Positions 27,146 through 47,613 of a stretch of 64,000 nt of DNA are shown one piece after another. The translations under genes were made by a program, and so were the position numbers. Within the stretch, counting starts at the first letter, position 1. Every line of letters begins with the position of its first letter. The notes beneath the pieces were generated by a model, which ran no database searches, was not told where the DNA came from, and was given only the letters and a program-made list of their open reading frames with translations. The stretch is from Acinetobacter phage vB_AbaM_14/CRR8: the sequence record PV611675.1. One strand, given 5' to 3'.

Positions 27146-27391
27146 ATGTATATACATGGCAGAAGTATAGCTTATGTGATTGTAGATGAATGCTTGCATG
27201 AGGTCGAGAGTGTTGATGCAGCGTTAAAGATTCTTGCTGAGAAAGTGGAAAAGAGGAGAAAGTTTTCAATAGATGAGACTACTAGTTTATTTCCGAAGTT
27301 CGCAATGGAAGTAAACAAACGTCCACCAGAACCAAATGACTGGAGACGTAAAAGTAAACGTGGCTTCAATGGATATCAACGTCATGTCTAA
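27146..27391 (+). CDS. hypothetical protein
   Basis: 81 aa. RBS taggagaatta. Confidence 0.4.
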   Translation: MYIHGRSIAYVIVDECLHEVESVDAALKILAEKVEKRRKFSIDETTSLFPKFAMEVNKRPPEPNDWRRKSKRGFNGYQRHV

Positions 27392-27417
27392 TAAATTTAA
27401 TTTAAGAGGTAGCGAAG

Positions 27418-27531
27418 ATGCTAACTAAACACGAAAGATTAGCTATACTATACTCATTTATTGGGATCATATACTTGGTTGTGATTATGATGGGTGTTGG
27501 TTCTTATTTAGATAAAACTTGTGGAGGTTAG
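27418..27531 (+). CDS. small hydrophobic peptide (37 aa)
   Basis: MLTKHERLAILYSFIGIIYLVVIMMGVGSYLDKTCGG. RBS gaggtagcga. Confidence 0.25.
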   Translation: MLTKHERLAILYSFIGIIYLVVIMMGVGSYLDKTCGG

Positions 27532-27532
27532 G

Positions 27533-27955
27533 ATGGGTAAAGCAGCTCGCCTTAAACAGCAACGTAAGGCTCGTGTGGCGATTTTACAGAAGAGAGGTAC
27601 GATTACACCGATTGACATTGAAAAGGTCAAATCTGGACCAATGGGTGCAGCATACTGGGTTACTGGATACTTCTGGGAACATGATGTCAAGATTGTAGAG
27701 CCATTTTGTGTGGTGAATAAGTTTGGTAACTTGAATATTACAAGTTTAGGTATTGGTGACATGGAGTTCTATGAGGCTAGAAAACTATTGAAGTCACCAA
27801 ACAATATCCTTATATTTGAGGATCGGGTTGCAGCTTTAGATGCTTGTCAAGCTTTACACAATGAAAAAGAGCTTCTTGATGGTATGTTTGAATTTATGTC
27901 TAAGGAAGATTTTGAACAATTTGCAAATGATAGGGTAGGAAATGAAAATGAGTGA
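27533..27955 (+). CDS. hypothetical protein
   Basis: 140 aa. RBS ggaggttagg-ATG. Confidence 0.4.
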   Translation: MGKAARLKQQRKARVAILQKRGTITPIDIEKVKSGPMGAAYWVTGYFWEHDVKIVEPFCVVNKFGNLNITSLGIGDMEFYEARKLLKSPNNILIFEDRVAALDACQALHNEKELLDGMFEFMSKEDFEQFANDRVGNENE

Positions 27956-28913
27956 TGAAGTACAGTATTTAAATCTACTAAAAGATTTATTAAATAAAAT
28001 TGAAGATAAAGGTTTTCAGACAAATGATCGAACGGGTGTAGGGACGTGTAAGATTTTTGGCGCTCAGATGAGATTTGATTTGGAGAAAGGCTTCCCATTG
28101 TTTACACATAAGAAGGTGTTCATGCGTGGAATCTTTGAAGAGCTTATGTGGTTCTTAAGAGGTGATACAAACATTCGCACATTATTAGATCGTGATGTAC
28201 ATATCTGGACAGAGTGGCGATATAAAGCATATTGTAAATTTCAGGATCACTACAATCTACCTAAGTTTACTATGAAAGAATTTGAACAAGAGATTGTTGA
28301 GTCTCAAGCTTTTGCGAACCAGTTTGGAGATATTGGTAAAGGTTATGGACATCAATGGCGTAACTTTGGTGAAATTGAAGATGAGGCAACTAGTGTAGAT
28401 TGTTTCGGTGAAAGGACTGTACCATATTATCGTGAAGGTATTGACCAGATTGAGTGGGTTATCAATGAGATTAAGGTTAATCCGAACAGTCGTCGTCTAA
28501 TTGTATCTGGTTGGAATCCTCAAGAGGTTGATCAAGTAGACCTTCCACCATGCCATACACTATTCCAATTCTTTGTAGAAGATGGTAAGTTATCTTGTCA
28601 GTTATATCAACGTAGTGCTGACATTTTGTTAGGTGTGCCGTTTAATATCGCATCGTATGCTTTGTTGACACATTTAATTGCAGCTGAATGTGGCTTAGGT
28701 GTTGGAGAGTTCATCTGGACAGGTGGGGATATCCATGTATATTCAAACCAAATAGATGGATTGAAAGAGATCGTAAATAATAGATTTGCTTTAAAAGCTC
28801 CTACGCTGAAATTACGAAGAGTACGTAAGGATATTGCACAATATCAATGGCAAGATATTATTTTAGAAGGGTATAGTTCATTACCTAAAGTGGAAATGCC
28901 AGTAGCAGTATAG
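27942..28913 (+). CDS. thyA: thymidylate synthase (ThyA/Td)
   Basis: Conserved ThyA blocks: RTGVGT, MRFDL, HTLFQFFV...LSCQLYQRSADI (active-site Cys in PCH) and GVPFNIASYALL. Confidence 0.9.
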   Translation: MKMSDEVQYLNLLKDLLNKIEDKGFQTNDRTGVGTCKIFGAQMRFDLEKGFPLFTHKKVFMRGIFEELMWFLRGDTNIRTLLDRDVHIWTEWRYKAYCKFQDHYNLPKFTMKEFEQEIVESQAFANQFGDIGKGYGHQWRNFGEIEDEATSVDCFGERTVPYYREGIDQIEWVINEIKVNPNSRRLIVSGWNPQEVDQVDLPPCHTLFQFFVEDGKLSCQLYQRSADILLGVPFNIASYALLTHLIAAECGLGVGEFIWTGGDIHVYSNQIDGLKEIVNNRFALKAPTLKLRRVRKDIAQYQWQDIILEGYSSLPKVEMPVAV

Positions 28914-37623: not shown

Positions 37624-37893
37624 GTGAAGTGTATGTTGGTAGTTAGTCGAAGAACTGCAATATTTATTAATACAGTCGCTAATTGGGCTTTTATTAATTA
37701 CAATTATGATCGTAATGCACTGAAGGATTTTCAGGGTAGGCTTAGAGATAGAGTTAACCTATCAAAATTAGTTAGTGATGTATCTTTAGGTGATGACTGT
37801 GATTGTCTTGTTTCGATAGATGATGCAGACACACCTTTAGTTGAAAGTATTCTTAAAAGTTTCAAGGAGCGTAATCGTGGAAGTAATTCGTAA
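37624..37893 (+). CDS. hypothetical protein
   Basis: 89 aa. Confidence 0.3.
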   Translation: MKCMLVVSRRTAIFINTVANWAFINYNYDRNALKDFQGRLRDRVNLSKLVSDVSLGDDCDCLVSIDDADTPLVESILKSFKERNRGSNS

Positions 37894-38785
37894 TAAGGTG
37901 GTAGAACAATATACTTGGGCTGGTCAGAAAATTGAATTGACTATTAAGAAATATAAGCCGATTGTTTTCCATAAAAATTTGTGGGACCAATACCCTTCAG
38001 CTATCAAAGCGCGTGGTGCTGTATATCATGGTGATGAACAAGTGGTATATCCTATGGACAAGTGTTTCAACTACCTTGAGAATGGTTGTGGAAAAGATAT
38101 CGAGGGTGATCACTATGTTATGTGGTATCGTAAAGTAAATGGCTTTATGGTGAACCTTACATACCATGAAGCTCTTGGTTGGATCATTTCAACTACAGGT
38201 GATGCTATCATCTTTGGCAATGTGACAGAGAATAAATACATCAATATGGCTTTGCAGTATATTGAAAAGTATGATGGCTTTGGTTTGTATGAACAGTTAA
38301 AGGGTGACTATTGCTTCTTTGATGACGATCAATTTACGGTGACGTTTGAAGTTGTCCATGAGAATGATCCACACATCGTAACTGAAGTGACTGGACTATA
38401 CCCATTATGTGTGCAAAAGAATGGTGTAACAATACCATTAAATGTCTCTCTTCAGGAGGATGGTAGTGGTGAGTTTGATGATTTGAAAGAAGCTTTGAAG
38501 GTATGTAGACATGAAGGCTTTATGGTCTACAATGGTGCTGGTGAGCTTCTATTTAAGATGAAGTCTCCATATTACCTTGCTAAGAAATGGGTACAGCGTG
38601 GAGGAGCTAAGCGAGTTTGGAGTAATGACTATAAAGAACGTTTGGATGAAGAGTATTACCCAATCATTGATTACTTACGATCACATCATGACAAGGAAGA
38701 GTGGGATAAGATGACAGAAGAGGCAAAGTCTATTGCATTCTTGGATGCTTACTACTTTGTAAATAACTTTAGTAGGGAGGGATAA
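37877..38785 (+). CDS. RNA/DNA-ligase-like covalent nucleotidyltransferase (putative RNA ligase)
   Basis: Motif I YRKVNGFM (KxNG variant, as in tRNA ligases). Motif III FFDDDQFTVTFEVV. Motif IV HEGFMVYNG. Motif V LLFKMKSPYY. Start taken at the GTG at 37877, 7 nt after aaggag. Confidence 0.45.
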   Translation: MEVIRNKVVEQYTWAGQKIELTIKKYKPIVFHKNLWDQYPSAIKARGAVYHGDEQVVYPMDKCFNYLENGCGKDIEGDHYVMWYRKVNGFMVNLTYHEALGWIISTTGDAIIFGNVTENKYINMALQYIEKYDGFGLYEQLKGDYCFFDDDQFTVTFEVVHENDPHIVTEVTGLYPLCVQKNGVTIPLNVSLQEDGSGEFDDLKEALKVCRHEGFMVYNGAGELLFKMKSPYYLAKKWVQRGGAKRVWSNDYKERLDEEYYPIIDYLRSHHDKEEWDKMTEEAKSIAFLDAYYFVNNFSREG

Positions 38786-39342
38786 TGGGTGTAGTAACAC
38801 ACGGCATGAGTGGGACTCCATTGTACCAATGTTGGAAGAATATGAAGGCTAGGTGTTATAGAAAGTCATCTACTCACTTCCATAGGTATGGTGGTAGGGG
38901 TATTAAGGTCTGTGATGAGTGGAAATTTTCATTCATCACATTTATGGATTGGGCATATAAAAGTGGCTACTCTGAGGATTTAACTATTGATAGGGTAGAT
39001 GTTGATAAGGACTATACACCTGATAATTGTAGATGGATTAGACCTGATGAAAATGTATCAAGAGCTAACTTTTACCATAAGGAGTTAGGAACTGGATGTC
39101 AATCGGATACATCTAAGATGAAAATGAGGGAAACCATTGTTGATTTACAAGGCATGAAGGTTGAACTTTATTTTGGTTTGAAATTGATTGGTGTGTATGA
39201 TTCAATAGGTCTAGCTTCTGATTATGTTGCTGAAGCCCTTGGAAGGAAGAAAAAGAATGTCTACTCTCAGATGAAACAACAAATGAAAGGTAAGGTTAAA
39301 ACTACTGGTGGCTATACTGTGGAGGAATTTTTAGATGAGTAA
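38785..39342 (+). CDS. HNH_3-type homing-endonuclease-like protein
   Basis: CYRKSSTHFHRYGGRGIKVCDEW...TIDRVDVDKDYTPDNCRWI matches the HNH_3 / AP2-associated endonuclease pattern. It is inserted between the ligase-like and Pnk-like genes. Confidence 0.4.
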   Translation: MGVVTHGMSGTPLYQCWKNMKARCYRKSSTHFHRYGGRGIKVCDEWKFSFITFMDWAYKSGYSEDLTIDRVDVDKDYTPDNCRWIRPDENVSRANFYHKELGTGCQSDTSKMKMRETIVDLQGMKVELYFGLKLIGVYDSIGLASDYVAEALGRKKKNVYSQMKQQMKGKVKTTGGYTVEEFLDE

Positions 39343-39748
39343 TAAAATACTTTGGTTTATTAGGGGTGTGTCGGGTTCTGGAAAGAGTACCGTAGCAAAA
39401 GTGTTACGGGAACAGCTACCATTTGGTTGTGGAACTGAGGCTGATGACTTTCGTTATATCGATGGTCGGTATGCATGGGAGGAGGTCCCAAATTATATTG
39501 CACACCGTAAATGTTTTGATACTACAAAAGAATTCTTGACAGATGGTCGTCAAAATGTGGTAGTATCTAATACATCGACAAGAAGCAAAGATGTTCGCAA
39601 GTATAAGAAGCTTGCAGAAGAATTTGGGTATATGTTTATATCTATTGTGGTTGAGAATTACCATGAGACAGGTAATACACATAATGTACCATATGCTACA
39701 CTTGTTGATATGGAAAATAAACTACGTGGTAGTATTAAATTAAAGTGA
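39335..39748 (+). CDS. polynucleotide 5'-kinase domain protein (T4 Pnk kinase-like P-loop)
   Basis: ILWFIRGVSGSGKSTVAKVL parallels the T4 Pnk N-terminus (GCPGSGKSTWA). 137 aa, so kinase domain only. Confidence 0.55.
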   Translation: MSNKILWFIRGVSGSGKSTVAKVLREQLPFGCGTEADDFRYIDGRYAWEEVPNYIAHRKCFDTTKEFLTDGRQNVVVSNTSTRSKDVRKYKKLAEEFGYMFISIVVENYHETGNTHNVPYATLVDMENKLRGSIKLK

Positions 39749-39755
39749 GGTATTT

Positions 39756-39944
39756 GTGAAAATTTTACTAAATGGGTTGGAATGGGACTCTGAGGTACAT
39801 AAAAATTTAATTAAAAAATTGGGTGGTGTCAAGGTTATTGAAGGTAAAATAAAAGAACCTCTTTTAGCAGGGGAGGCTCACTACTATAAAATGATCTTGC
39901 ATGTAAAGGAAACTTTTGAAGCTCATAACGTAGGATTTAAATAA
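39756..39944 (+). CDS. small hypothetical protein
   Basis: 62 aa. Confidence 0.3.
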   Translation: MKILLNGLEWDSEVHKNLIKKLGGVKVIEGKIKEPLLAGEAHYYKMILHVKETFEAHNVGFK

Positions 39945-40570
39945 TGGCTAAGTTATCTACAAGTGATTTACATTTTGGACATGTAAATATTTTAAAGTTC
40001 ACCAAGCGTTACCATTTTATGTTTGACGATTCAACTTTTAAAAATCAATATTTTATTGATTCGGATGTATTTGAAAGAATGCATAACGGAACTCTGACTT
40101 ATTCTGACAAGGTGTTGATTAAAGAGAAGCATGATAATTGGTTGATCGAAAGGTTGAATAGCCAAATTGACAATGGTGATGTGGTTTATCATGTAGGGGA
40201 TTTTGCATTCTATAAGGATGTAAAGTCTATTCGCAATATCATTATGCAGTTGGCTGGAGATTGGATTTTTGTACTAGGTAATCATGATAATGAATCTACA
40301 TTACGTGAAGCTTGTAAGGGTACTCGTCATAAGGTGGTAGGTTATTACCATATGACTCGTGTCAATCGTAAGCGTGTGATTTTCTGCCATTTTCCTTTTG
40401 AAGAGTGGGATCAATGCCATAATGGTTCATGGCATGTCTATGGACATTTACATGGTTCTGATGGTCATGGGGAGTTCAAGATGAGAAAGGACTTGCCACG
40501 TCGATTTGATACTGGCATTGATGCACATAAAGAATGTAAGCTTTTCAACTTAGATGAGGTGATTCAGTGA
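39944..40570 (+). CDS. calcineurin-like metallophosphoesterase (candidate 2',3'-phosphatase end-healing enzyme)
   Basis: DLHFGH, VYHVGDFA, VLGNHD and FCHFP blocks match the metallophosphatase signature DxH...GD...GNH(D/E). Confidence 0.6.
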   Translation: MAKLSTSDLHFGHVNILKFTKRYHFMFDDSTFKNQYFIDSDVFERMHNGTLTYSDKVLIKEKHDNWLIERLNSQIDNGDVVYHVGDFAFYKDVKSIRNIIMQLAGDWIFVLGNHDNESTLREACKGTRHKVVGYYHMTRVNRKRVIFCHFPFEEWDQCHNGSWHVYGHLHGSDGHGEFKMRKDLPRRFDTGIDAHKECKLFNLDEVIQ

Positions 40571-40746
40571 GTTTATTTACAGTAGGTAATGATGTTGGTC
40601 TAGCTGCTGACCATTTAAATTTCGCTATCGAGACTTTGGAAGATTGTGATATTGATGGCGAGGCTATGGATTCATTACGTGAGGCACAGCAACGATTAGA
40701 CCAAGCTATGGCTGAGATTGCTGTATTAAGGGAAAAGTACCCATGA
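40567..40746 (+). CDS. small hypothetical protein (59 aa, GTG start)
   Basis: Its start overlaps the MPE stop (GTGA) and its stop overlaps the next ATG, so it is translationally coupled. Confidence 0.25.
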   Translation: MSLFTVGNDVGLAADHLNFAIETLEDCDIDGEAMDSLREAQQRLDQAMAEIAVLREKYP

Positions 40747-41012
40747 TGCTGCATGGCAGAAAGACTACATATAAGGATTCGGTCCAACGACTGCTTAATT
40801 GTGGAGCCAACCTTGAAGAAATGATGATAGAGATGCTTGAGTTTGAGAGTACTCTATCTGCTGGTCTAAAGGAACGTCACTGGACAGCCTCATTTCACGT
40901 AGGAGGTGAGTTAAAGTCTTTGACTGTAGTACCAGAGGGAACGGAGCTTTCATTCCGTGTGCAGGATTTGGCGAAGTATAGGGTGTTGTTAACACCAGAG
41001 GAGTTGAGATAG
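40743..41012 (+). CDS. hypothetical protein
   Basis: 89 aa. Confidence 0.35.
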   Translation: MMLHGRKTTYKDSVQRLLNCGANLEEMMIEMLEFESTLSAGLKERHWTASFHVGGELKSLTVVPEGTELSFRVQDLAKYRVLLTPEELR

Positions 41013-41245
41013 TGCCTATATGTATTGGAGGACCATTCCATGATAAACATGCTAATTGTGGTGATTACATTTATACTATAATGGGTACTAGGAAGCTTGT
41101 AGAATATCGGCTAAGAGATTACTGTTATGACGATGGTTCTATTAAAAAGATTCAACTTTACCAGCATGTGTCCCTTTCAGATGAATGTATCATTCAATTC
41201 CTAAATGAAAAATTTAATTTAAACCCTGTTGAGAAAAAGTCTTGA
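41012..41245 (+). CDS. hypothetical Cys/His-rich protein
   Basis: 77 aa. CIGGPFHDKHANCGDY. Confidence 0.35.
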   Translation: MPICIGGPFHDKHANCGDYIYTIMGTRKLVEYRLRDYCYDDGSIKKIQLYQHVSLSDECIIQFLNEKFNLNPVEKKS

Positions 41246-41269
41246 CAGGGTTTTTCTTTGCCTGTAATA
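41241..41269 (+). promoter_or_regulatory. sigma70-like promoter TTGACA-N17-TAATAT overlapping a 7 bp hairpin (AACCCTG...CAGGGTT + T-run)
   Basis: Read directly from the sequence. Confidence 0.45.
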
Positions 41270-41303
41270 TTCACTTCACTTCATAGACAACTAGGAGCTG
41301 GAA

Positions 41304-41849
41304 ATGAAAGCAAGACGTGAGTTAGAGTTAAAAGTTTGGAATCTTTCTGAAGAGGAAGTTTTAAATAAAACACTATTTGATTTGCTTGGTAAAGAAGAAA
41401 TTGTAAGATGCTTCCATGAAGCATTTAAAAAGCTTGGCGTACTACAACGTTATGATGAGTTTTATCTGAAGAAAATTGGTAATCGTAAGGTTAATAACTA
41501 TATCTCAACGTTACGTGAATTAGATGGTCAAGTTGGAACTCGACTCTACAAAGTTGAGCACAATGCATTCATGACAGGTTTGTTACGTGAAGCTGGCATA
41601 ATCGATGGTGTTTATTTCGCAGCTCTGTATCCAAACTTCATGAAGAAGATTATTACTTCTGCACAAAGCCATATGGGTTTAATTGAGGGTGATACAGGAA
41701 ATGGTAAAGATCATTTAATCTATGTACTTAAGGGTGTTAGTGGTCTTGCAACTACAGAGCAATCTAAGTTGTTGGGCATTTCAATGGGTCATTGGGAAGG
41801 TGGTCGAGAGAAAGTTACTGGACTTAAACGTCGAAAAGATCGTAAATAA
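41304..41849 (+). CDS. hypothetical protein
   Basis: 181 aa. Confidence 0.4.
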   Translation: MKARRELELKVWNLSEEEVLNKTLFDLLGKEEIVRCFHEAFKKLGVLQRYDEFYLKKIGNRKVNNYISTLRELDGQVGTRLYKVEHNAFMTGLLREAGIIDGVYFAALYPNFMKKIITSAQSHMGLIEGDTGNGKDHLIYVLKGVSGLATTEQSKLLGISMGHWEGGREKVTGLKRRKDRK

Positions 41850-41853
41850 TTGT

Positions 41854-41882
41854 TGACACAGATTTAATTTTTAATTATATTT
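41854..41882 (+). promoter_or_regulatory. sigma70-like promoter atTGTTGACA-N16-TATATT
   Basis: Read directly from the sequence. Confidence 0.45.
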
Positions 41883-41910
41883 AATGCACAAACTAACTGG
41901 AGTAAAGGAA

Positions 41911-42051
41911 ATGTCTAAATTCACTAAACCGTCACAAGATAAAGATCAGTTCGAATCTTATCATGATGAGCGAAAGCAACGTGGTCGTAAGCGACATGAC
42001 GGTGGTAAGAAAGTGAAATCTTCAACTAAATGGTATGATCGGATGAACTAA
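41911..42051 (+). CDS. small basic protein (46 aa)
   Basis: MSKFTKPSQDKDQFESYHDERKQRGRKRHDGGKKVKSSTKWYDRMN. RBS ggagtaaaggaa. Confidence 0.3.
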   Translation: MSKFTKPSQDKDQFESYHDERKQRGRKRHDGGKKVKSSTKWYDRMN

Positions 42052-42052
42052 T

Positions 42053-42571
42053 ATGAAAGGATTTATTAAAGAAGGTTCGTTAGAAGAAGCCAACAAAATC
42101 TTGATGTGTTACCAAGATGTTTTGAAGGCAATGGATAAAATCCAAAAGGGTGAAGAGCCACCGCCTTGGTTTAATACTAGGGTTGGTACTTGTATCAATG
42201 TTGAGTTAGCAGCTTTTGCAAACTATGGTATTAATTTAAACAATCTAGATGATTGGCAGAGAAGTGTTGTACATCCAGATCAAGATATTTGTATAGGTGA
42301 GTCGAAACTCGATTATATTCTTAACAAAGCTTGGATTGATTTTGTAAACACTATGGGTAATACTGTAGGGTATGTTGAACCTAACTCAAGTAATGTTTAC
42401 CCTATCATCCGTGAATATCCAGAATATACAGCTGCATATTCATATGCCAATAGTGTTGCATATGGAACTCTTTACAAAGGCAAACAGTTAGAGGCTCGTG
42501 TAAGTTTAGTGAACTTCAAGTGTCAAGTACTACGAGAAGAGTTACTGAACATTTGGAAATTAAGTAAGTAA
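42053..42571 (+). CDS. hypothetical protein
   Basis: 172 aa. Confidence 0.4.
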   Translation: MKGFIKEGSLEEANKILMCYQDVLKAMDKIQKGEEPPPWFNTRVGTCINVELAAFANYGINLNNLDDWQRSVVHPDQDICIGESKLDYILNKAWIDFVNTMGNTVGYVEPNSSNVYPIIREYPEYTAAYSYANSVAYGTLYKGKQLEARVSLVNFKCQVLREELLNIWKLSK

Positions 42572-42586
42572 TTTGAGGATTAAAAT

Positions 42587-43690
42587 ATGAAATTTATCAA
42601 GTACCCAAGCATTAAACGTTTAACTGAACGTGCAATCAATAATGTGAAGGAAATGCCATTTGAATTACCACAATTTATGGTAACTGAGAAACTTCATGGG
42701 GCCAATATGGGTATCTACTCTAATGGTGAAGAGTTTAAGATTGCATCTCGTGAAGGTTTTGTCCGTGAAGGTATCAAGTTCTACAATGGTCGTGCTGTAG
42801 CTGATCGATACAAAGATGGTATCATGGAACATGCCAAACACTCTGTTAAATCTGCTCGTGAGATTGGCATCATTGGTGATGTAGTAAGTATCTACTTTGG
42901 TGAACTGTTTGGTGGGAGTATCCATAAAGGTACACCATACTCTCAAGAGCAAGATTTTGTTTTGTTTGACTTCTTCATGACATTTGAAAACTCTGAAGAG
43001 AACCTTAAAGCATTAAAGCTATTTGGTGTTAAAGATTTTATTGTATATGAGGAGCAAGGAGTTATTGCTTGTCGTAGTTACGATAAACCTAGTTCATTGA
43101 AATACATCTCCGAGTTTATTGGTTGTCGACATATTGAGATTTTATTTATTGGCTCATTTGAAGATGCTTTAAAAGTTGAGAACAACTTTAAATCTAAGTA
43201 TGTGTGTCCTGAAAAGGTTAAGGAGTCTGGCGTTGCTGCTCATGGTCAAGATGCAGTAGACTACCTATGCATTACTGAAGGTGTAATCATTGAACCAGTG
43301 AACCCAATGAATCATTTTGGTGACATGCTTAAATACAAATCTAAGAACTCTAAGTTTGAAGAGAAGTATAATACAGGTTATAAAGAGAAAATTTCTGCTG
43401 TTGAGAAGGCTCTCAATAAATTAACAGATGAAGAACGTGATACATTGACTGATATGGATCAATACATTACTAACCCTCGTTACGATGCTGTGGTGAGTAA
43501 GATTGGTGAAGTAACCATCAAAGATTTTTCAAAAGTTTTGAAAGCTTTTGTTGAAGACGTATTAGCTGACATTAAAGAAGATTATCAAGAGTATCGTGAG
43601 TGCTTCCCTGATCTTAGTAAAGATGCTATGATGTTATTCACAAATGAAGTTAAAGCGTTTATTCGCCCTAAATTATTGGAGAACAGTTAA
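42587..43690 (+). CDS. RNA ligase 2 (T4 Rnl2-like)
   Basis: Motif I TEKLHGANMGI, the KxHG variant that characterises Rnl2. EGVIIEP (motif IV). LKYKSKNSKF (motif V). The C-terminal VVSKIGEVTIKDFSKVL parallels the T4 Rnl2 C-terminal domain. Confidence 0.8.
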   Translation: MKFIKYPSIKRLTERAINNVKEMPFELPQFMVTEKLHGANMGIYSNGEEFKIASREGFVREGIKFYNGRAVADRYKDGIMEHAKHSVKSAREIGIIGDVVSIYFGELFGGSIHKGTPYSQEQDFVLFDFFMTFENSEENLKALKLFGVKDFIVYEEQGVIACRSYDKPSSLKYISEFIGCRHIEILFIGSFEDALKVENNFKSKYVCPEKVKESGVAAHGQDAVDYLCITEGVIIEPVNPMNHFGDMLKYKSKNSKFEEKYNTGYKEKISAVEKALNKLTDEERDTLTDMDQYITNPRYDAVVSKIGEVTIKDFSKVLKAFVEDVLADIKEDYQEYRECFPDLSKDAMMLFTNEVKAFIRPKLLENS

Positions 43691-44658
43691 TGTCCATTTT
43701 ACGAGTTAAAAACTTCCTTGAACTGCATGTAGTTGGCAAGGGGCAGATTAAAGTAGATGTGGTGGAATTTGGGGACGGCACTAAAAGTGTCCGTATCCCT
43801 ACTATTAAGTGTTACGACCGAGAGACCACTTTCCGTATTGAGTTATTTCAGCGTAGTATGGATGACATCATGCTTGTTGCACAAATTGTAGATATCATTC
43901 GTCGTAATACACGTACAATTGTGAACATCATCTTAAGCTTAGAGTCACCAATGTATATGCGTTATGATCGTGTGATGAATGATAAGAAGGATGATGCCTT
44001 TGCACTAAAACAGTTTGTGAAAATGATTCTGGCGACAGGTGTCAATCATGTACAGTTGACAGACCCTCACAGTGAAGTGGCTGAGGAGTTGTTATTCCTA
44101 CATGGCTCTGGTCGAAACTTTGTAAGTGTTACACGTCAAGAAGATTGTGTGTATGAGGCTCTACGAACATTCACAGAAGGACATAAAAACCTAGGGCATT
44201 ATGATATTGTACTACCTGATGCTGGAGCAGCTAAGAAAGTTCTTGGTTATGAAACTTTCCAATGTATGAAAGCTCGTGACCCTAACACTGGTAAGTTGTC
44301 TAAAGCTGGGTTTGATATTGATCCTAATGTATTAACTAAGTTGTTATTGAGTAAGAAAGATAGAATCATTATTGTTGACGACATCTGCGAGAACGGTGGA
44401 ACCTTCTTAGGATGCCATAAAATGCTCAGAGAGCGTGGTGTTATAAAACCTATGGATTTGTACATCACACATGGCGTATTCCCTAATGTGCAAGCAATGA
44501 GTAAGTTCTATGGGGTGTTTGAGAATATCTACATATACAATGGAACAAATGCAAAGTATCTTGACCTTGTATCCCATACAGGAGCTAAGATTCATATGGT
44601 AAATGCTTTTGTGGGAGCTGATGAATTAGTTTTCGAAGATGACCTATTTAAGTCTTGA
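43690..44658 (+). CDS. Prs-like phosphoribosyl-pyrophosphokinase-fold protein; candidate ADP-ribose pyrophosphokinase (Adps) of a NARP1-type NAD+ reconstitution pathway
   Basis: 322 aa. PRPP-synthetase-type binding loop RIIIVDDICENGGTFLG. The overall length matches Prs. Its start overlaps the Rnl2 stop (TAATG). A NAMPT-like gene lies 285 nt downstream. Confidence 0.6.
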   Translation: MSILRVKNFLELHVVGKGQIKVDVVEFGDGTKSVRIPTIKCYDRETTFRIELFQRSMDDIMLVAQIVDIIRRNTRTIVNIILSLESPMYMRYDRVMNDKKDDAFALKQFVKMILATGVNHVQLTDPHSEVAEELLFLHGSGRNFVSVTRQEDCVYEALRTFTEGHKNLGHYDIVLPDAGAAKKVLGYETFQCMKARDPNTGKLSKAGFDIDPNVLTKLLLSKKDRIIIVDDICENGGTFLGCHKMLRERGVIKPMDLYITHGVFPNVQAMSKFYGVFENIYIYNGTNAKYLDLVSHTGAKIHMVNAFVGADELVFEDDLFKS

Positions 44659-44684
44659 CATCTATACAATAGTGGGGTTATAAT
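44655..44684 (+). promoter_or_regulatory. sigma70-like promoter TTGACA-N18-TATAAT with the -10 in the clamp GGGGttataatggCCCC
   Basis: Read directly from the sequence. Confidence 0.45.
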
Positions 44685-44711
44685 GGCCCCACAAACTTTT
44701 AGAGGTGTGCT

Positions 44712-44939
44712 ATGAGAAAAGCTCGTATTAAAGCTACAAAACAACAAATGGTTGATATGGGTATCGACGGTGTGGTTGTTAATGGAGAGGTAATTAAAGA
44801 TGGTACAATTCTAGACATTAAAGAATTGCAAATCAACTTTGAGGGTAAGCCAGCATTTCAGTTTATTGGATCATATAATGGGTTAATAGACCATACATGG
44901 TACATCTCGGCTGAGCTATTTGAATTTATTGAGGGTTAA
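44712..44939 (+). CDS. hypothetical protein
   Basis: 75 aa. RBS tagaggtgtgct-ATG. Confidence 0.4.
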   Translation: MRKARIKATKQQMVDMGIDGVVVNGEVIKDGTILDIKELQINFEGKPAFQFIGSYNGLIDHTWYISAELFEFIEG

Positions 44940-44942
44940 TTT

Positions 44943-46787
44943 ATGAATTTTTTAGAAAAGAAAGCCTTATTAGAGGAATCAATCTTTGACGCAGTGCCAA
45001 AGGTGAATCCTTTCTTATATTGGACAGACTCTTACAAAGATTCTCATATTCGTTTTGAAGTTGAGGGTGTTAAGTATATTTATTCTAATGCCACAGCACG
45101 TTTTGGTTACTACATGAAAAACCTTCTGGGTGAATACTTTGAAGATGAGTTCGTTGTTTTTGGTATTCAGTGGATGTTGGCACGTTTTCATGCTATGGCT
45201 AAGATCGGATTCTTTGATCGTCCTAAGCAAGAAGTATTGGATGAAATGTTAGAGGTACTTGGACCTTACATTGGTGAAACGGATGTAACTCGTTTTGGTG
45301 ATCTCCATGATCTTGGTTATGTACCATTGATCTTTAAAGCATTACCAGAAGGTACAGTTGCACCTATTGGTACTCCATTCTATACATGTGAGAATACATT
45401 ACCTGAATTTGAATGGCTTGCAAATTTCCTTGAGTCTGGTATGTCTACAGATACTTGGAAACAGTTAACAGTAGCTACTGTAGCTTATGCTTTCCGTCGA
45501 ATCAGTAACAAGTTCGCTTTAGAGACTCAAGGAAATATCGAGGGTACAGAGTGGCAAAACCATGACTTCTCAACACGTGGTCAATCTGGATTTGAGTCTG
45601 GTGCAATTAATGGTGTAGCATTCTTGCTTAGCTCTTGTGGCACAGACAATAAGCCATCATTGTGGGCAGCTCGTGACTTCTATTTGAGTAAGAATACCCA
45701 AGACTTATTGTTGTGTGGTTCTGTACCTGCTGGGGAACATAGTGTTTCTACATTAGGTATTCAATCATTCATTAAGAAAGCTGAACTTGCTGGTGAGGAA
45801 CTATCGTTACTTGAGGCTGAAATTAAATATGCTAAGTTTGTTATTACAGAACGTTTCCCTACAGGTATCTTATCTTATGTGTCGGATTCGTATGATTACT
45901 GGGGATTCATTAAAGAAGTTCTTCCAGCTCTTAAAGAAGATATTCTTGCACGTGATGGTAAACTTGTTGTGCGTGGCGATTCAGGTGATCCTATTCATAT
46001 TATCGCTGGTTATCGTATCTTTGATGCTGATACAGATGTACGTGTTAAGGGTAAGTTTAATTCAGTATCTCAGTTGATGTTGAACACACACTTATGGTGG
46101 GATTCTAAGTGGGAGGTCATCAAATTCAATGATCAATATTTCTTGATCATTGATAGTGGTACAGAACTTCAAGAGATTTCACGTGAAGAAGCTCATGGAA
46201 CTATCCAATGTTTATGGGATGAGTTTGGTGGTATTGTAAATGATCTTGGATTTAAACACTTAGATAGTCATATCGGCATGATCTATGGTGATGGAATTAC
46301 AATCCAACGTTCAGTAGAAATCTTGACTCGATTAAAGGACAAAGGTTTTGCATCTACAAATATCGTATTTGGTGTAGGTAGTTACTCATTGAATATGTTA
46401 TCTCGTGACCATCTTGGTATTGCCATTAAAGCAACCAATGCAATCATTGAGATTGATGAACGTCTCGTTGAGATGCCTATCTACAAGGACCCTAAGACTG
46501 ATACGAGTAAGAAGTCTGCTAAAGGTTATTTGGTGGTGTCTGCTGATAAGGAAGGGAATATCATTACTTTGGATGAACAGAGTCGTGAAGCAGCTTTACA
46601 TACTGGTTTACTTGAAACTGTATATATGAATGGGCAATTCCAAGTCTTAACTACAGTACCAGAGATTCGAGAGCGTCTATGGAATCCTAAATCTTTAGCT
46701 CCTCCAACTGTAGAGGAGGGTGAGGAAGTGATTGTAAATGATATCACACCAGAAGTTGACGGTGAGTCAGAGGAGTTTGTAGAGTAA
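44943..46787 (+). CDS. nicotinamide phosphoribosyltransferase-family protein; candidate nicotinamide ADPR transferase (Namat) partner of the Prs-like gene
   Basis: 614 aa. NAMPT/NadV-like blocks: HDFSTRGQSGFESG, DSYDYW, RGDSGDP, IYGDGIT. It has an acidic C-terminal extension. It pairs with a Prs-like gene rather than an NMN adenylyltransferase. Confidence 0.6.
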   Translation: MNFLEKKALLEESIFDAVPKVNPFLYWTDSYKDSHIRFEVEGVKYIYSNATARFGYYMKNLLGEYFEDEFVVFGIQWMLARFHAMAKIGFFDRPKQEVLDEMLEVLGPYIGETDVTRFGDLHDLGYVPLIFKALPEGTVAPIGTPFYTCENTLPEFEWLANFLESGMSTDTWKQLTVATVAYAFRRISNKFALETQGNIEGTEWQNHDFSTRGQSGFESGAINGVAFLLSSCGTDNKPSLWAARDFYLSKNTQDLLLCGSVPAGEHSVSTLGIQSFIKKAELAGEELSLLEAEIKYAKFVITERFPTGILSYVSDSYDYWGFIKEVLPALKEDILARDGKLVVRGDSGDPIHIIAGYRIFDADTDVRVKGKFNSVSQLMLNTHLWWDSKWEVIKFNDQYFLIIDSGTELQEISREEAHGTIQCLWDEFGGIVNDLGFKHLDSHIGMIYGDGITIQRSVEILTRLKDKGFASTNIVFGVGSYSLNMLSRDHLGIAIKATNAIIEIDERLVEMPIYKDPKTDTSKKSAKGYLVVSADKEGNIITLDEQSREAALHTGLLETVYMNGQFQVLTTVPEIRERLWNPKSLAPPTVEEGEEVIVNDITPEVDGESEEFVE

Positions 46788-47260
46788 TGATTGAGGAACG
46801 CATCAAAGGTGATGTGTTCCCTTACCTTATGAAGAAGGATAACAATTTTGACGCATTTGTTCATGGTTGTAATTGCTTCTGTACTATGGGTAAGGGGATA
46901 GCTCCACTAGTCAAAAAGCATTTCTATGCTGCTTATGAGGCTGATTTACTCACAGAGAAAGGTGATCGGAGTAAGCTTGGTGATTATACATGGGCTTGGT
47001 TTAATGAGTATAAACTTGAAATTATCAATGCTTACACTCAATACGATTACAGAAAAGCTTATGGTGATACAGATATCAATGTCAGTTATCATGCTATTCG
47101 GGAAGTGTTTAGAAAGCTTAACAAGGACTATCGAGGGTGTCGATTCGCTATACCTAAGATCGGTGCTGGTTTGGCTGGAGGTGATTGGGAGTTGATTGAG
47201 AAGATCATCAATGAAGAGACACCACACTTACACATTACATTATTTTATTTAGAGGATTAA
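46787..47260 (+). CDS. macro domain protein (ADP-ribose binding/processing)
   Basis: 157 aa. DAFVHGCNCFCTMGKGIAPLV (the N-x6-GGG-like ADPR-binding loop region) and RFAIPKIGAGLAGGDWE (the second phosphate-binding loop). Its start overlaps the NAMPT-like stop (TAATG). Confidence 0.55.
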   Translation: MIEERIKGDVFPYLMKKDNNFDAFVHGCNCFCTMGKGIAPLVKKHFYAAYEADLLTEKGDRSKLGDYTWAWFNEYKLEIINAYTQYDYRKAYGDTDINVSYHAIREVFRKLNKDYRGCRFAIPKIGAGLAGGDWELIEKIINEETPHLHITLFYLED

Positions 47261-47262
47261 TT

Positions 47263-47523
47263 ATGAAATTTAATATTAAAGGCGTACAACCTCTTGTACA
47301 ATCAAATAAGTTCCCTGCTTTAGTGCAAAGTATTCCACAAGAAGGCGATAATCCAGAAGATGTATTTATTATTTGGGCTTTGGACAAGAGTCAAGGTGTC
47401 ATTGTAAAGAACACTGAAGAGCCTGATTCTGAAGGTGAACTTGAAGATGGTTATGACTTTACAGACTCTAAGGCTTGGGTCCGATTACCAGTTGGAACAG
47501 TGCTAGAAATTACTCAAGAATAA
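47263..47523 (+). CDS. hypothetical acidic protein
   Basis: 86 aa. Confidence 0.4.
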   Translation: MKFNIKGVQPLVQSNKFPALVQSIPQEGDNPEDVFIIWALDKSQGVIVKNTEEPDSEGELEDGYDFTDSKAWVRLPVGTVLEITQE

Positions 47524-47537
47524 AATATTTAAATTAA

Positions 47538-47565
47538 GGGTGAGCTTAGGCTTGCCCTTTTTTAT
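47538..47565 (+). terminator. intrinsic terminator GGGTGAGCttaggCTTGCCC + T7
   Basis: Read directly from the sequence. Confidence 0.6.
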
Positions 47566-47613
47566 TGCTTGTAGTATTATAAGATCATTAGTTAACCAAC
47601 GAGAGATCGTCTA

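Follow-up and report, generated by a model that had tools for sequence, protein, structure and literature searches.

A macro-domain gene overlapping Namat in an Acinetobacter phage: a probable orthologue of Adpp in the extended NAD+ reconstitution pathway

The NAD+ cassette and its expression signals

The window analysed here is a 64,000-nucleotide stretch of DNA from Acinetobacter phage vB_AbaM_14/CRR8 (sequence record PV611675.1), a Saclayvirus-type phage whose NAD+ cassette is 98.8% identical to that of vB_AbaM_B09_Aci01-1 (Aci01-1). The cassette comprises the genes of Adps and Namat, the two enzymes of the NAD+ reconstitution pathway NARP1, and, directly behind Namat, the gene of a macro-domain protein (Table 1). 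An earlier note on this DNA had taken the two neighbours for an NAD+ cassette, and this is borne out: both match PHROG families, Adps is 28% identical to its counterpart in Vibrio phage Gary (E 5e-18), with Gary K192 at K194, and Namat is 37% identical to that of Gary (E 9e-100), with the catalytic H243 at H266. The two genes lie close together and these catalytic residues are intact, as expected of NARP1. What is more, Table S1 of Osterman et al. (January 2026 preprint, bioRxiv 10.64898/2026.01.28.702374) gives the name Adps to the gene at the same position in relatives of this phage (MH800198_00139, MH746814_00137) and the name Namat to the one at the Namat position (MH800198_00141). The specificity of Namat for ADPR-PP is conferred by the aromatic residues of a 'selectivity clamp' (PMC12774641).

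Table 1. Features of the cassette region, with positions in the window
Feature	Position	Strand	Basis and remarks
RNA ligase 2	42587..43690		Pfam RNA_ligase, T4_Rnl2_C; directly 5' of Adps
Adps, Prs-like ADP-ribose pyrophosphokinase, 322 aa	43690..44658	+	phrog_619, E 3.3e-51; first NARP1 enzyme
Promoter-like site (putative)	44655..44684	+	sigma-70 consensus TTGACA, 18 nt, TATAAT (12/12 match); in the gap between Adps and orf75
orf75	44712..44939	+	Small ORF in the gap between Adps and Namat; no Pfam or PHROG match
Namat, NAMPT-like nicotinamide ADP-ribose transferase, 614 aa	44943..46787	+	Pfam NAPRTase, E 8.4e-27; phrog_448, E 9.6e-167; second NARP1 enzyme
GAGGAG, Shine-Dalgarno-like hexamer (putative)	46770..46775	+	Read from sequence; in the 3' end of Namat, 11 nt 5' of the macro ATG
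Macro-domain protein, probable Adpp orthologue (predicted ADPR-1''-phosphate phosphatase), 157 aa	46787..47260	+	Fold, homology and identity with Table S1 entries
orf86	47263..47523	+	Small ORF, 2 nt past the macro stop; no Pfam or PHROG match
Intrinsic-terminator-like hairpin (putative)	47536..47569	+	10-bp stem with 5 G-C pairs, T tract; ends the unit orf75-Namat-macro-orf86

The macro-domain ORF, listed with an ATG start, begins on the stop codon of the NAMPT-like gene exactly as had been described, a single A being common to the Namat TAA and the macro ATG (gagTAATGatt). From this stop/start overlap we infer that the two genes are translationally coupled; together with the GAGGAG hexamer upstream, the overlap favours coupled or closely matched translation of Namat and the macro protein. 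Upstream, the Adps stop codon sits within the -35 hexamer of the promoter-like site, which matches the sigma-70 consensus perfectly in a region where the total count of such sites is no higher than in shuffled sequences. The same site is the left edge of a block containing Namat and the macro gene that is 83-85% identical in phiAbaA1-type phages. The two small ORFs were found by tblastn in only 15 Acinetobacter phage records each, at the locations checked always in the same place, namely orf75 in the slot between Adps and Namat and orf86 directly 3' of the macro gene. Taken at face value, these features appear to delimit a single expression unit, which would run from the promoter-like site through orf75, Namat, the macro gene and orf86 to the terminator-like hairpin. 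In other words, the macro gene is tied to the Adps/Namat cassette physically, and probably transcriptionally as well.

Fold and active site of the macro-domain protein

The assignment to the macro-domain family, originally made from two phosphate-binding loops, holds up on several grounds. The two loops, HGCNCFCTMGKGIA (residues 26-39) and PKIGAGLAGGDWE (residues 123-135), are both present, and in the AlphaFold2 model (pLDDT 92.4, pTM 0.89) each is preceded by a beta strand (E23-28 and E119-122) and followed by a helix, as in the phosphate-binding loops of macro domains. They include the glycine-rich stretches that bind the diphosphate of ADP-ribose, MGKGIA (residues 34-39) and IGAGLAGG (125-132), and across 65 homologues H26, N29, G35, G37, G126, G128, G131, G132 and W134 are nearly invariant. 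Taken alone, the Pfam Macro profile (PF01661) stays below threshold (E 0.0021; 18.4 bits against a gathering cut-off of 22), while the protein matches PHROG phrog_335, annotated as 'phosphatase', at E 3.5e-51. A profile of the family finds solved macro structures, namely BT1257 of Bacteroides (2FG1; 2e-19), SCO6735 of Streptomyces coelicolor (5E3B; 1.3e-16) and Poa1p of Saccharomyces cerevisiae (9e-11), as well as DarG and TARG1. The model itself has the three-layer alpha/beta/alpha macro fold; Foldseek returns 227 PDB matches at E <= 0.001, the top ones all macro domains, led by human TARG1/OARD1 (E 3.5e-10) and DarG (6.7e-9), with a probability of 1.0 and TM-scores of 0.7-0.8 to TARG1, BT1257, Poa1p, DarG and viral macrodomains. 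The best query TM-score, 0.78, is to Poa1p with bound ADPR (6lfr). On these grounds, then, the 157-aa protein is confirmed as a macro domain well beyond chance.

Its active site was compared with those of known macro domains by mapping residues from an HMM alignment; an alignment of 6 sequences made with MAFFT places the central part of TARG1 wrongly. SCO6735 and BT1257, Gln-type ALC1-like proteins and the best solved relatives in sequence, share with the window macro the triad of His, Asn and Gln and a longer mobile loop: H24, N27 and Q85 of SCO6735 correspond to H26, N29 and Q85, and R89/K90 lie in the lengthened mobile loop. The Val/Ile of the SCO6735 type at position 25 is replaced by G27 (Gly throughout the window's clade; Gln, Val or Ser in the other aligned proteins). 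SCO6735 also differs in being basic, in acting on ADPr-thymidine in ssDNA and on Glu/Asp-linked protein ADP-ribosylation, and in having no NAD-salvage genes around it. TARG1 and DarG belong to the same ALC1-like structural class, yet their catalytic lysine (K84 and K80, respectively) is here the family-invariant Q85, D125 of TARG1 is A130, and the window macro comes without a toxin partner. Poa1p (PDB 6LFQ/6LFR), an ADP-ribose-1''-phosphate phosphatase, resembles the window protein in H23 and N26, equivalent to H26 and N29, and has the chemistry that is proposed for the window protein. It differs in sequence (~19-23% identity), in a Ser at the position of Q85, in an insertion of ~20 residues and in its cellular role, which is tRNA splicing and not antiviral conflict; two further positions of Poa1p studied by mutation are likewise not kept, S30 being T33 (R31 in Gary) and F152 being A130.

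Adpp and the extended pathway

The earlier note held that the coupling of such a gene to the cassette had not been described. This turns out to be the very subject of the preprint of Osterman et al., which contains the exact protein. Namely, NARP1-AP is made up of Adps and Namat together with Adpp, a macro-domain phosphatase of ADPR-1''-phosphate, and counters aRES, a RES-domain NADase (10.64898/2026.01.28.702374). In that work, purified Gary Adpp converted ADPR-1P to ADPR, as seen by LC-MS, and the three-gene operon of Gary overrode aRES in E. coli. There the macro protein is a true step of the pathway, because deleting or mutating its gene abolishes the anti-aRES activity. The 157-aa sequence of the window stands unchanged in Table S1 of the preprint, as the protein of Aci05 (MH746814_00140) and of Aci01-1 (MH800198_00142), and the entries for TAC1 and phiAbaA1 are near-identical to it.

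The window protein aligns with Gary Adpp (KNV71_gp137 / GARY_182) over 142 aa at 36% identity (E 2e-27), and all three residues whose mutation abolished the Gary system, as taken from the primer list of the preprint, are kept, namely Adpp H24 (here H26) and the Adps and Namat residues given above. The two systems thus share the macro family, the essential His and the three-enzyme set, and in both the start of the macro gene overlaps the stop of an upstream pathway gene. They differ in gene order, which in Gary is Adps-Adpp-Namat with Adpp overlapping Adps, whereas in the window Adps is followed by the promoter-like site and then by orf75-Namat-Adpp-orf86, with Adpp overlapping Namat; they also differ in phage type and host, Gary being a T5-like Vibrio phage and the source of the window a Saclayvirus of Acinetobacter. 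The gene also answers to the operational definition of Adpp, a macro gene no more than two genes away from an Adps-Namat pair: it adjoins Namat, and Adps lies two genes upstream. Other members of the family are closer to Gary Adpp than the window macro is, which in a rough NJ tree belongs to a large clade that also takes in macros from loci lacking NARP1.

By the published scheme, aRES would split NAD+ phosphorolytically, giving nicotinamide and ADP-ribose-1''-phosphate, the latter a product that Adps could not use. The macro enzyme would strip the 1''-phosphate to give ADP-ribose, Adps would pyrophosphorylate this to ADPR-PP, and Namat would join ADPR-PP to nicotinamide and so regenerate NAD+. 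The general idea of the earlier note, that the macro enzyme feeds ADPR into the pathway, matches this mechanism, and ADPR-1''-phosphate was among the substrates it proposed for assay; the source it had in mind, ADP-ribosylated protein or DNA, is not the documented one, which is free ADPR-1''-phosphate from aRES.

The association between macro and Namat genes, which had been proposed as a check, is found across phages. Among 80 Namat loci in IMG/VR, collected with a 9-sequence alignment (a single-sequence query gave only 3), 24 have a macro gene of the family within 10 kb, in every case on the same strand, while the family occurs anywhere in the genome in 5.5% of phages (binomial p 4e-12). Conversely, NARP1 genes lie within 10 kb at 12-15 of the 80 closest macro loci. 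Macros adjacent to NARP1 occupy at least 8 separate places in the rough NJ tree, and these observations support an independent recurrence of the linkage. In phiAbaA1, where the stop and start codons overlap in the same way, identity to the window proteins is 88% for Namat and 92% for the macro protein but just 46% for Adps, and by this comparison Namat and the macro gene are inherited as a block in Acinetobacter phages. A macro gene of the family also overlaps a NAMPT-like stop codon in a 246-kb jumbo phage (L022), in an island that adds NMNAT-Nudix, Sir2 and Prs-like genes. In Acibel004, a related phage, both Adps and Namat occur, but no macro gene could be detected at up to 10 kb from Namat, and the macro gene is therefore dispensable for NARP1 itself; the slot after its Namat, checked for another ADPR-processing enzyme, holds a 199-aa ORF with no match to the family.

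Putting these lines together, we take the window macro to be the Acinetobacter-phage orthologue of Adpp and an accessory enzyme in NARP1-AP, the extended form of NAD+ reconstitution, with a probability of roughly 0.8. Its ADPR-1''P phosphatase activity, and the relevance of this activity in Acinetobacter hosts, we infer by analogy with the Gary orthologue. As regards the hosts, Table S2 of the preprint, taken here as the list of putative aRES systems, contains the word Acinetobacter 45 times; at three mentions of the genus per row, as in the rows excerpted, this points to some 15 Acinetobacter genomes with a putative aRES, A. baumannii AB31 among them. For aRad1, the other published anti-aRES protein, no match better than E 0.2 was found in the window, by tblastn with seven sequences and by HMM over 560 six-frame ORFs.

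Other roles and what the gene implies

Although the evidence above favours Adpp, the family is found in 2,779 phage records, most of them without an adjacent NARP1, and ~80% of the closest relatives of the window macro are also without it; the family must therefore have at least one role independent of NARP1. The T4-like Tk.4 proteins are a case in point. They belong to the same family (~35% identity for Mosigvirus JN02, ~33-35% for other T4-like entries and 48% for Acj61 tk.4, over ~87-97% of the query), yet their genes lie between tk and vs, and the 3 kb inspected on either side contain neither Adps nor Namat. T4-like phages are not known to carry NARP1 at all, and the role of the Tk.4 macro cannot be to feed it.

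One such role would be that of an ADP-ribosylhydrolase like SCO6735 or DarG, acting on ADPr-thymidine in ssDNA (of the DarT type) or on protein, in which case the adjacency to NARP1 would reflect a shared anti-defence island or the recycling of released ADPR. The best solved sequence relatives, BT1257 and SCO6735, come ahead of Poa1p, and the window macro has H26, N29 and Q85 at the SCO6735 positions, along with K36 in the GKG loop and R89/K90 in the mobile loop. SCO6735 itself lacks the catalytic lysine of TARG1 and DarG and depends on N27 and Q85 (H24Y is also inactive, because its fold is disturbed); it outpaces DarG in cleaving the ADPr-thymidine DNA that DarT makes, and it rescues E. coli from DarT (PMC9411070). 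For this reason we dropped the argument that Q85 in place of the TARG1/DarG lysine rules out DarT reversal: SCO6735, which is the closer homologue and has Gln there too, cleaves such DNA efficiently. Still, Gary Adpp, which is much closer to the window protein than SCO6735 is (88 against 20 bits in phmmer), is by assay the ADPR-1''P phosphatase needed against aRES, and a DNA-repair enzyme would not be expected to show so strong and recurrent an association, on one strand, with Adps and Namat. V25 of SCO6735, called specific to its subclass, is the glycine noted above. The electropositive ssDNA groove of SCO6735 finds no parallel either, judging by net charge, a crude proxy for a groove: the window macro is acidic (pI 5.96), as is the NARP1-linked macro of PAK_P1 (4.85), whereas the DNA-acting SCO6735 and TARG1 are at 9.7 and 8.6, although acidity is weak support for a NARP1 role over a DNA role. 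We consequently regard a role mainly as an ADP-ribosylhydrolase as unlikely. That said, the window macro may have a DarT-reversing side activity, because SCO6735 has one, and it is conceivable, if doubtful, that the Gln-type macro is bifunctional, combining dephosphorylation of ADPR-1''P for NARP1 with SCO6735-like removal of DarT-type ADPr from ssDNA thymidine or from protein. If so, one 157-aa protein would disarm two unrelated NAD+-consuming defences, with the released ADPR going into NAD+ resynthesis, and the commonness of the family in phages without NARP1 would be explained too.

The wide distribution of the family would also suit a generic macro protein that handles other soluble ADPR esters, such as the O-acetyl-ADPR of sirtuins, or simply detoxifies ADPR-1''P, and that stands beside NARP1 through incidental clustering. 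The mixed island of the jumbo phage fits such a role, as does the prediction, from the survey of Iyer and Aravind (PMC9503650), that phage macro domains target soluble ADPr derivatives broadly. This we find distinctly unlikely: loss of the macro abolishes anti-aRES activity in Gary, the enrichment of macros beside Namat is far above the genome-wide frequency of the family, and in Acinetobacter phages the Namat-macro block is co-inherited with its stop/start overlap.

Very improbable is a Poa1p-like last step of NAD+-dependent RNA repair, in which the macro would clear the ADPR-1''P (or cyclic phosphate) left when a KptA/Tpt1 2'-phosphotransferase acts alongside the RNA ligases nearby. RNA ligase 2 does lie directly upstream of Adps, with another RNA ligase, a P-loop kinase and a metallophosphoesterase 3-9 kb upstream; RNA ligases also flank the NARP1-AP of Gary, the native role of Poa1p is in tRNA splicing (10.64898/2026.01.28.702374), and KptA-2H-Macro repair sets have been described in phages (PMC9503650). 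Neither a KptA/Tpt1 nor a 2H phosphoesterase partner was found among the 18 neighbouring ORFs (by Pfam) or among the genes annotated in 44 kb of a 98%-identical relative, however, and the macro shares its predicted transcription unit and mosaic block with Namat, being linked to Namat and Adps and not to the ligases. The kinase-phosphatase route of RNA healing is not known to yield an ADPR by-product.

An enzyme that supplies Adps and Namat with linear ADPR made from a non-canonical product of NAD+ degradation is known from another setting: RyDEP, embedded in the NARP1 operons of mycobacteriophages, plays a comparable accessory part, but its fold, that of an RyR-domain glycosidase, is unrelated, it cleaves a glycosidic bond in 2'/3'cADPR and not a phosphate ester, and it counters Thoeris and not aRES (bioRxiv 10.64898/2026.05.28.727677). 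Although RyDEP is thus a precedent in principle, and phage macro domains, which bind ADPR derivatives, are predicted to target cADPR variants (PMC9503650), the suggestion of the earlier note that the window macro degrades or sequesters ADPR-derived immune signals (the 1''-2' or 1''-3' gcADPR of Thoeris) finds no support and is scarcely credible, given that RyDEP, the only phage enzyme known to do so, is unrelated, that the RyDEP study knows of no other hydrolysing proteins and among 72 phage lysates, which may or may not have included macro carriers, found activity only in DyoEdafos, and that such an activity is not known for any member of the macro family.

For Adpp as the preferred reading, both the mechanism and the exact protein are in the literature, so what is described here is already known and therefore adds no new biology; reasoning from sequence alone had nevertheless converged on a real and recently discovered extension of the pathway. 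What the macro gene does provide is a mark of this phage as a carrier of NARP1-AP. Such carriage predicts escape from the canonical NAD+-depleting defences and, if the inference from Gary holds, from phosphorolytic depletion by RES-domain systems (aRES) as well, which bears on the prediction of host range for therapeutic phages of Acinetobacter baumannii in the Saclayvirus group.

The macro domain and its cassette

The macro gene begins on the stop codon of Namat, the NAMPT-like protein of 614 aa; namely, the TAA and the macro ATG have one base in common (gagTAATGatt), and a GAGGAG hexamer lies 11 nt 5' of this ATG, at 46770-46775. The two motifs quoted in the earlier note fall at residues 26-39 and 123-135 of the 157-aa product, and its description of the ORF, the overlap and the motifs was accurate. 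Pfam Macro matches the protein at E 0.0021 and 18.4 bits, below the gathering score of 22, which explains why several GenBank relatives label the gene 'hypothetical protein'. That it is a macro domain is nonetheless solid, as the earlier note had it. In particular, PHROG matches it to phrog_335 ('phosphatase', E 3.5e-51), and a database search gives 6,299 matching proteins with E <= 0.001, most of the top ones carrying a precomputed PF01661 match. What is more, the family profile finds the solved macro structures BT1257 (2e-19), SCO6735 (1.3e-16), M. tuberculosis DarG (1.8e-14), TARG1 (2.5e-13) and Poa1p (9e-11). The AlphaFold2 model, with 65 homologues as input (pLDDT 92.4, pTM 0.89), has a macro fold, its top Foldseek matches being macro domains only (TARG1 3.5e-10, BT1257 4e-10, Poa1p with ADPR 1.8e-9), with the highest query TM-score, 0.78, for Poa1p with ADPR. 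In the model the two quoted motifs form the loops that follow the strands at 23-28 and 119-122, and across the family they hardly vary.

Across the cassette the window shares 98.8% identity with vB_AbaM_B09_Aci01-1, an Acinetobacter phage of the genus Saclayvirus. From its layout, it is plausible that orf75, Namat, the macro gene and orf86 form one unit, bounded by a putative promoter and a putative terminator, both called as consensus matches, which in themselves do not prove function. The macro gene would then be co-transcribed with Namat and probably coupled to it translationally at the TAATG. The -10 element (TATAAT) of the putative promoter lies within a short palindrome, GGGGTTATAATGGCCCC (44676-44692), which could be an operator-like or a hairpin element. 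Neither orf75 nor orf86 resembles any known family in Pfam or PHROG; both are found in only 15 Acinetobacter phage records, in the same positions at every location checked. Within NARP1, the pair of Adps and Namat, orf75 fills a slot similar in kind to that of RyDEP in mycobacteriophage DyoEdafos. The 97.7% identical record OP585105.1 (Acinetobacter phage vB_AbaM_CP14) carries, in the region matching 43690-47523, the labels 'putative peptidase inhibitor', 'recombinase endonuclease VII', 'thioredoxin' and 'hypothetical protein' across the cassette, orf75 and orf86 included; among the product names there, none fits the Prs-like or the NAMPT-like gene, and these names look mis-assigned or shifted.

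Features of the NAD cassette and its 5' neighbours in the window, and of the jumbo-phage NAD island (contig L022)
Feature	Location	Strand	Remarks
RNA ligase	37841..38785		by position and a relative's annotation
P-loop kinase	39335..39748		AAA_33
Metallophosphoesterase	39944..40570		sub-threshold Metallophos_2; Nudix in one relative, phosphoesterase in another
RNA ligase 2 (Rnl2)	42587..43690
Prs-like gene (Adps)	43690..44658	+	phrog_619, 3.3e-51
Promoter-like site	44655-44684		perfect TTGACA-18-TATAAT (sigma-70 consensus), just 3' of Adps
orf75	44712..44939	+	unannotated, 75 aa
NAMPT-like gene (Namat)	44943..46787	+	phrog_448, 9.6e-167
Macro gene	46787..47260	+	157 aa; ORF and overlap read from sequence
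orf86	47263..47523	+	86 aa
Terminator-like hairpin	47536-47569		10 bp with T tract, 3' of orf86
Cytidylyltransferase-Nudix gene (NMNAT-Nudix-like)	L022 7035..8036
NAMPT-like gene	L022 8373..9989
Family macro gene	L022 9989..10444		start overlaps NAMPT-like stop
Sir2	L022 12608..13330
Prs-like gene	L022 14512..15558

NARP1-AP and the recurrence of the macro linkage across phages

Osterman et al. report that aRES, RES-domain defence proteins, split NAD+ into nicotinamide and ADPR-1''-phosphate, and that aRES defeats NARP1 because Adps cannot use the latter (bioRxiv 10.64898/2026.01.28.702374). In the same preprint, a macro-domain gene lies within two genes in 15% of 859 NARP1 operons, the Adps-macro-Namat operon of Vibrio phage Gary overcomes aRES, and Adpp, the macro protein of Gary, when purified yields ADPR from ADPR-1P; the pathway so extended is named NARP1-AP (10.64898/2026.01.28.702374). 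Its Table S1, under NARP1-associated macro proteins, gives those of Aci05 (MH746814_00140) and Aci01-1 (MH800198_00142), which equal our ORF residue for residue, and near-identical ones from TAC1 and phiAbaA1. The earlier note had taken the coupling to be undescribed; given the identical sequence in that table, it is described and the protein already catalogued. An earlier survey in Viruses 2022 (PMC9503650) had predicted that the main targets of phage macro domains are soluble derivatives of ADPr, the RES product ADPr-1''P among them. What stands of the earlier interpretation is a macro domain linked to NAD+ rebuilding, as in NARP1-AP, while its novelty falls away and the proposed gcADPR degradation finds no support; its reasoning from sequence was sound and converged on published biology.

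Our protein and Gary Adpp share 36% identity across 142 residues (E 2e-27). The primer table of the preprint gives K192A in Adps, H243A in Namat and H24A in Adpp as the inactivating mutations (10.64898/2026.01.28.702374); the window retains each of these residues, as K194 of the Prs-like, H266 of the NAMPT-like and H26 of the macro protein. In yeast Poa1p, whose sequence was confirmed against PDB 6LFQ, the residues aligned to H26 and N29 are H23 and N26. Drawing on the fold, the homology, the conserved residues and the recurrent gene linkage, we believe, with a probability of about 0.78, that the macro protein is the Adpp of NARP1-AP and acts as follows. Namely, phosphorolysis of NAD+ by a defence of aRES type would yield ADPR-1''P, the macro enzyme would hydrolyse off the 1''-phosphate, Adps would convert ADPR and ATP to ADPR-PP, and Namat would combine ADPR-PP with nicotinamide to restore NAD+. 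Phosphatase activity and anti-aRES function were shown for the Gary orthologue only (10.64898/2026.01.28.702374), and the activity of the window protein and its relevance in Acinetobacter are inferred. Rows of the preprint's table S2, which we read as listing putative aRES systems, name Acinetobacter, for example A. baumannii AB31; the genus name appears 45 times in the table, and three times per row in the excerpted rows, which suggests about 15 Acinetobacter genomes.

The co-occurrence analysis proposed in the earlier note supports the linkage. Of the family loci in IMG/VR, the 80 closest include 12 with both a clear Namat (>=150 bits) and Adps within 10 kb, a further 3 with just one of these, at a contig edge, and 13 with a NAMPT-like gene that is more distant (25-33% identical). 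Conversely, Adps lies within 10 kb in 73 of the 80 best Namat loci and a family macro gene, invariably on the same strand, in 24. Across phage records, the family is present anywhere in only 5.5% (2,779/50,697, tblastn), and 24/80 against this frequency gives a binomial p = 4e-12; this value ignores relatedness, but the 24 cases represent 13 different macro types. In a rough neighbour-joining tree, NARP1-adjacent macros stand in at least 8 separate places among non-adjacent ones; the association was therefore assembled or kept repeatedly, as a functional link would predict.

An adjacent NARP1 is absent in about 80% of the closest IMG/VR relatives of the macro protein and in most phages with the family, so the family must have a NARP1-independent role. 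Its tblastn records include Escherichia (1001), Klebsiella (378) and Salmonella (295). T4-like phages (L086, L087) carry the family macro as tk.4, which sits between tk and vs and has no Adps or Namat in its neighbourhood; its role there falls outside what the NARP1-AP model explains. In the jumbo-phage NAD island (7035-15558 of L022, the 246,795-bp contig IMGVR_UViG_3300034095_001474), the macro gene overlaps a NAMPT-like gene, so that macro and NAMPT are also paired outside textbook NARP1. About 7 distinct loci with such a pair group together as a clade, their NAMPT-like proteins being 25-31% identical to Namat, and the same pairing is found elsewhere in the tree in three further loci (L057, L071, L081). 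Candidates for the pathway served are NARP1, NARP2 or both.

Alternative activities

A rival that deserves respect, unlikely as we consider it, is a DNA or protein ADP-ribosylhydrolase reversing DarT, at least as a second activity. SCO6735, a closer solved homologue than Poa1p, outpaces DarG in taking DarT-made ADP-ribose off thymidine and protects E. coli against DarT; its activity depends on N27 and Q85, the H24Y variant being inactive too, through a disrupted fold (PMC9411070). Our protein carries H26, N29 and Q85, matching these active-site residues, and such an activity is therefore conceivable. The position of the catalytic lysine of TARG1 (K84) and DarG (K80) is an invariant Gln85 in the family, and TARG1 D125 is Ala130; the argument that a missing lysine precludes DarT reversal was dropped, since SCO6735 with the same Gln is active (PMC9411070). 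As the main role, however, DarT reversal is at odds with the much closer tested relative, Gary Adpp, being a phosphatase, and with the strong, repeated linkage to Adps and Namat. In addition, V25 of SCO6735 is Gly in our protein, which is acidic (pI 5.96), whereas SCO6735 (9.7) and TARG1 (8.6) are basic; the NARP1-linked macro protein of PAK_P1 is acidic too (pI 4.85). A bifunctional enzyme, for which the NARP1-independent family members and the L022 pairing leave room, is improbable, though not negligibly so.

A Poa1p-like role in RNA repair is very improbable: RNA ligases adjoin the cassette, as in Gary, where they flank the NARP1-AP operon on both sides (L002 19397..20323 and 27247..28233), but no KptA/Tpt1 or 2H enzyme was found among the neighbouring genes. 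An RNA-repair-like gene set lies directly 5' of the NAD cassette (37841-43690). As for the degradation of gcADPR signals suggested in the earlier note, we give it next to no credence, the known NARP1-embedded enzyme for this job being the unrelated RyR-domain RyDEP.

The Namat-macro module in Acinetobacter phages

Phages of the phiAbaA1 type match the orf75/Namat-macro stretch of the window (44700-47285) at 83-85% nucleotide identity, and at this level the similarity stops short of Adps. The proteins of phiAbaA1 (L084) are 88% (Namat) and 92% (macro) identical to ours, against 46% for Adps and 52% for Rnl2, and the stop/start overlap of Namat and macro is retained. The left edge of the orf75-Namat-macro-orf86 unit, at the consensus promoter, is a mosaic boundary. 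Namat and macro seem to be swapped or conserved as a single module, apart from Adps. The related Acinetobacter phage Acibel004 (L085, 9953-12405) has Rnl2, Adps and a Namat 65% identical to that of the window; no macro gene is detectable within 10 kb of Namat, and an unrelated 199-aa ORF with a TTG start and no Pfam or PHROG match lies directly 3' of Namat. Having Adps and Namat without a nearby macro gene, this phage marks the macro gene as an optional add-on to NARP1, and it offers a natural 'NARP1 without AP' comparator for host range.
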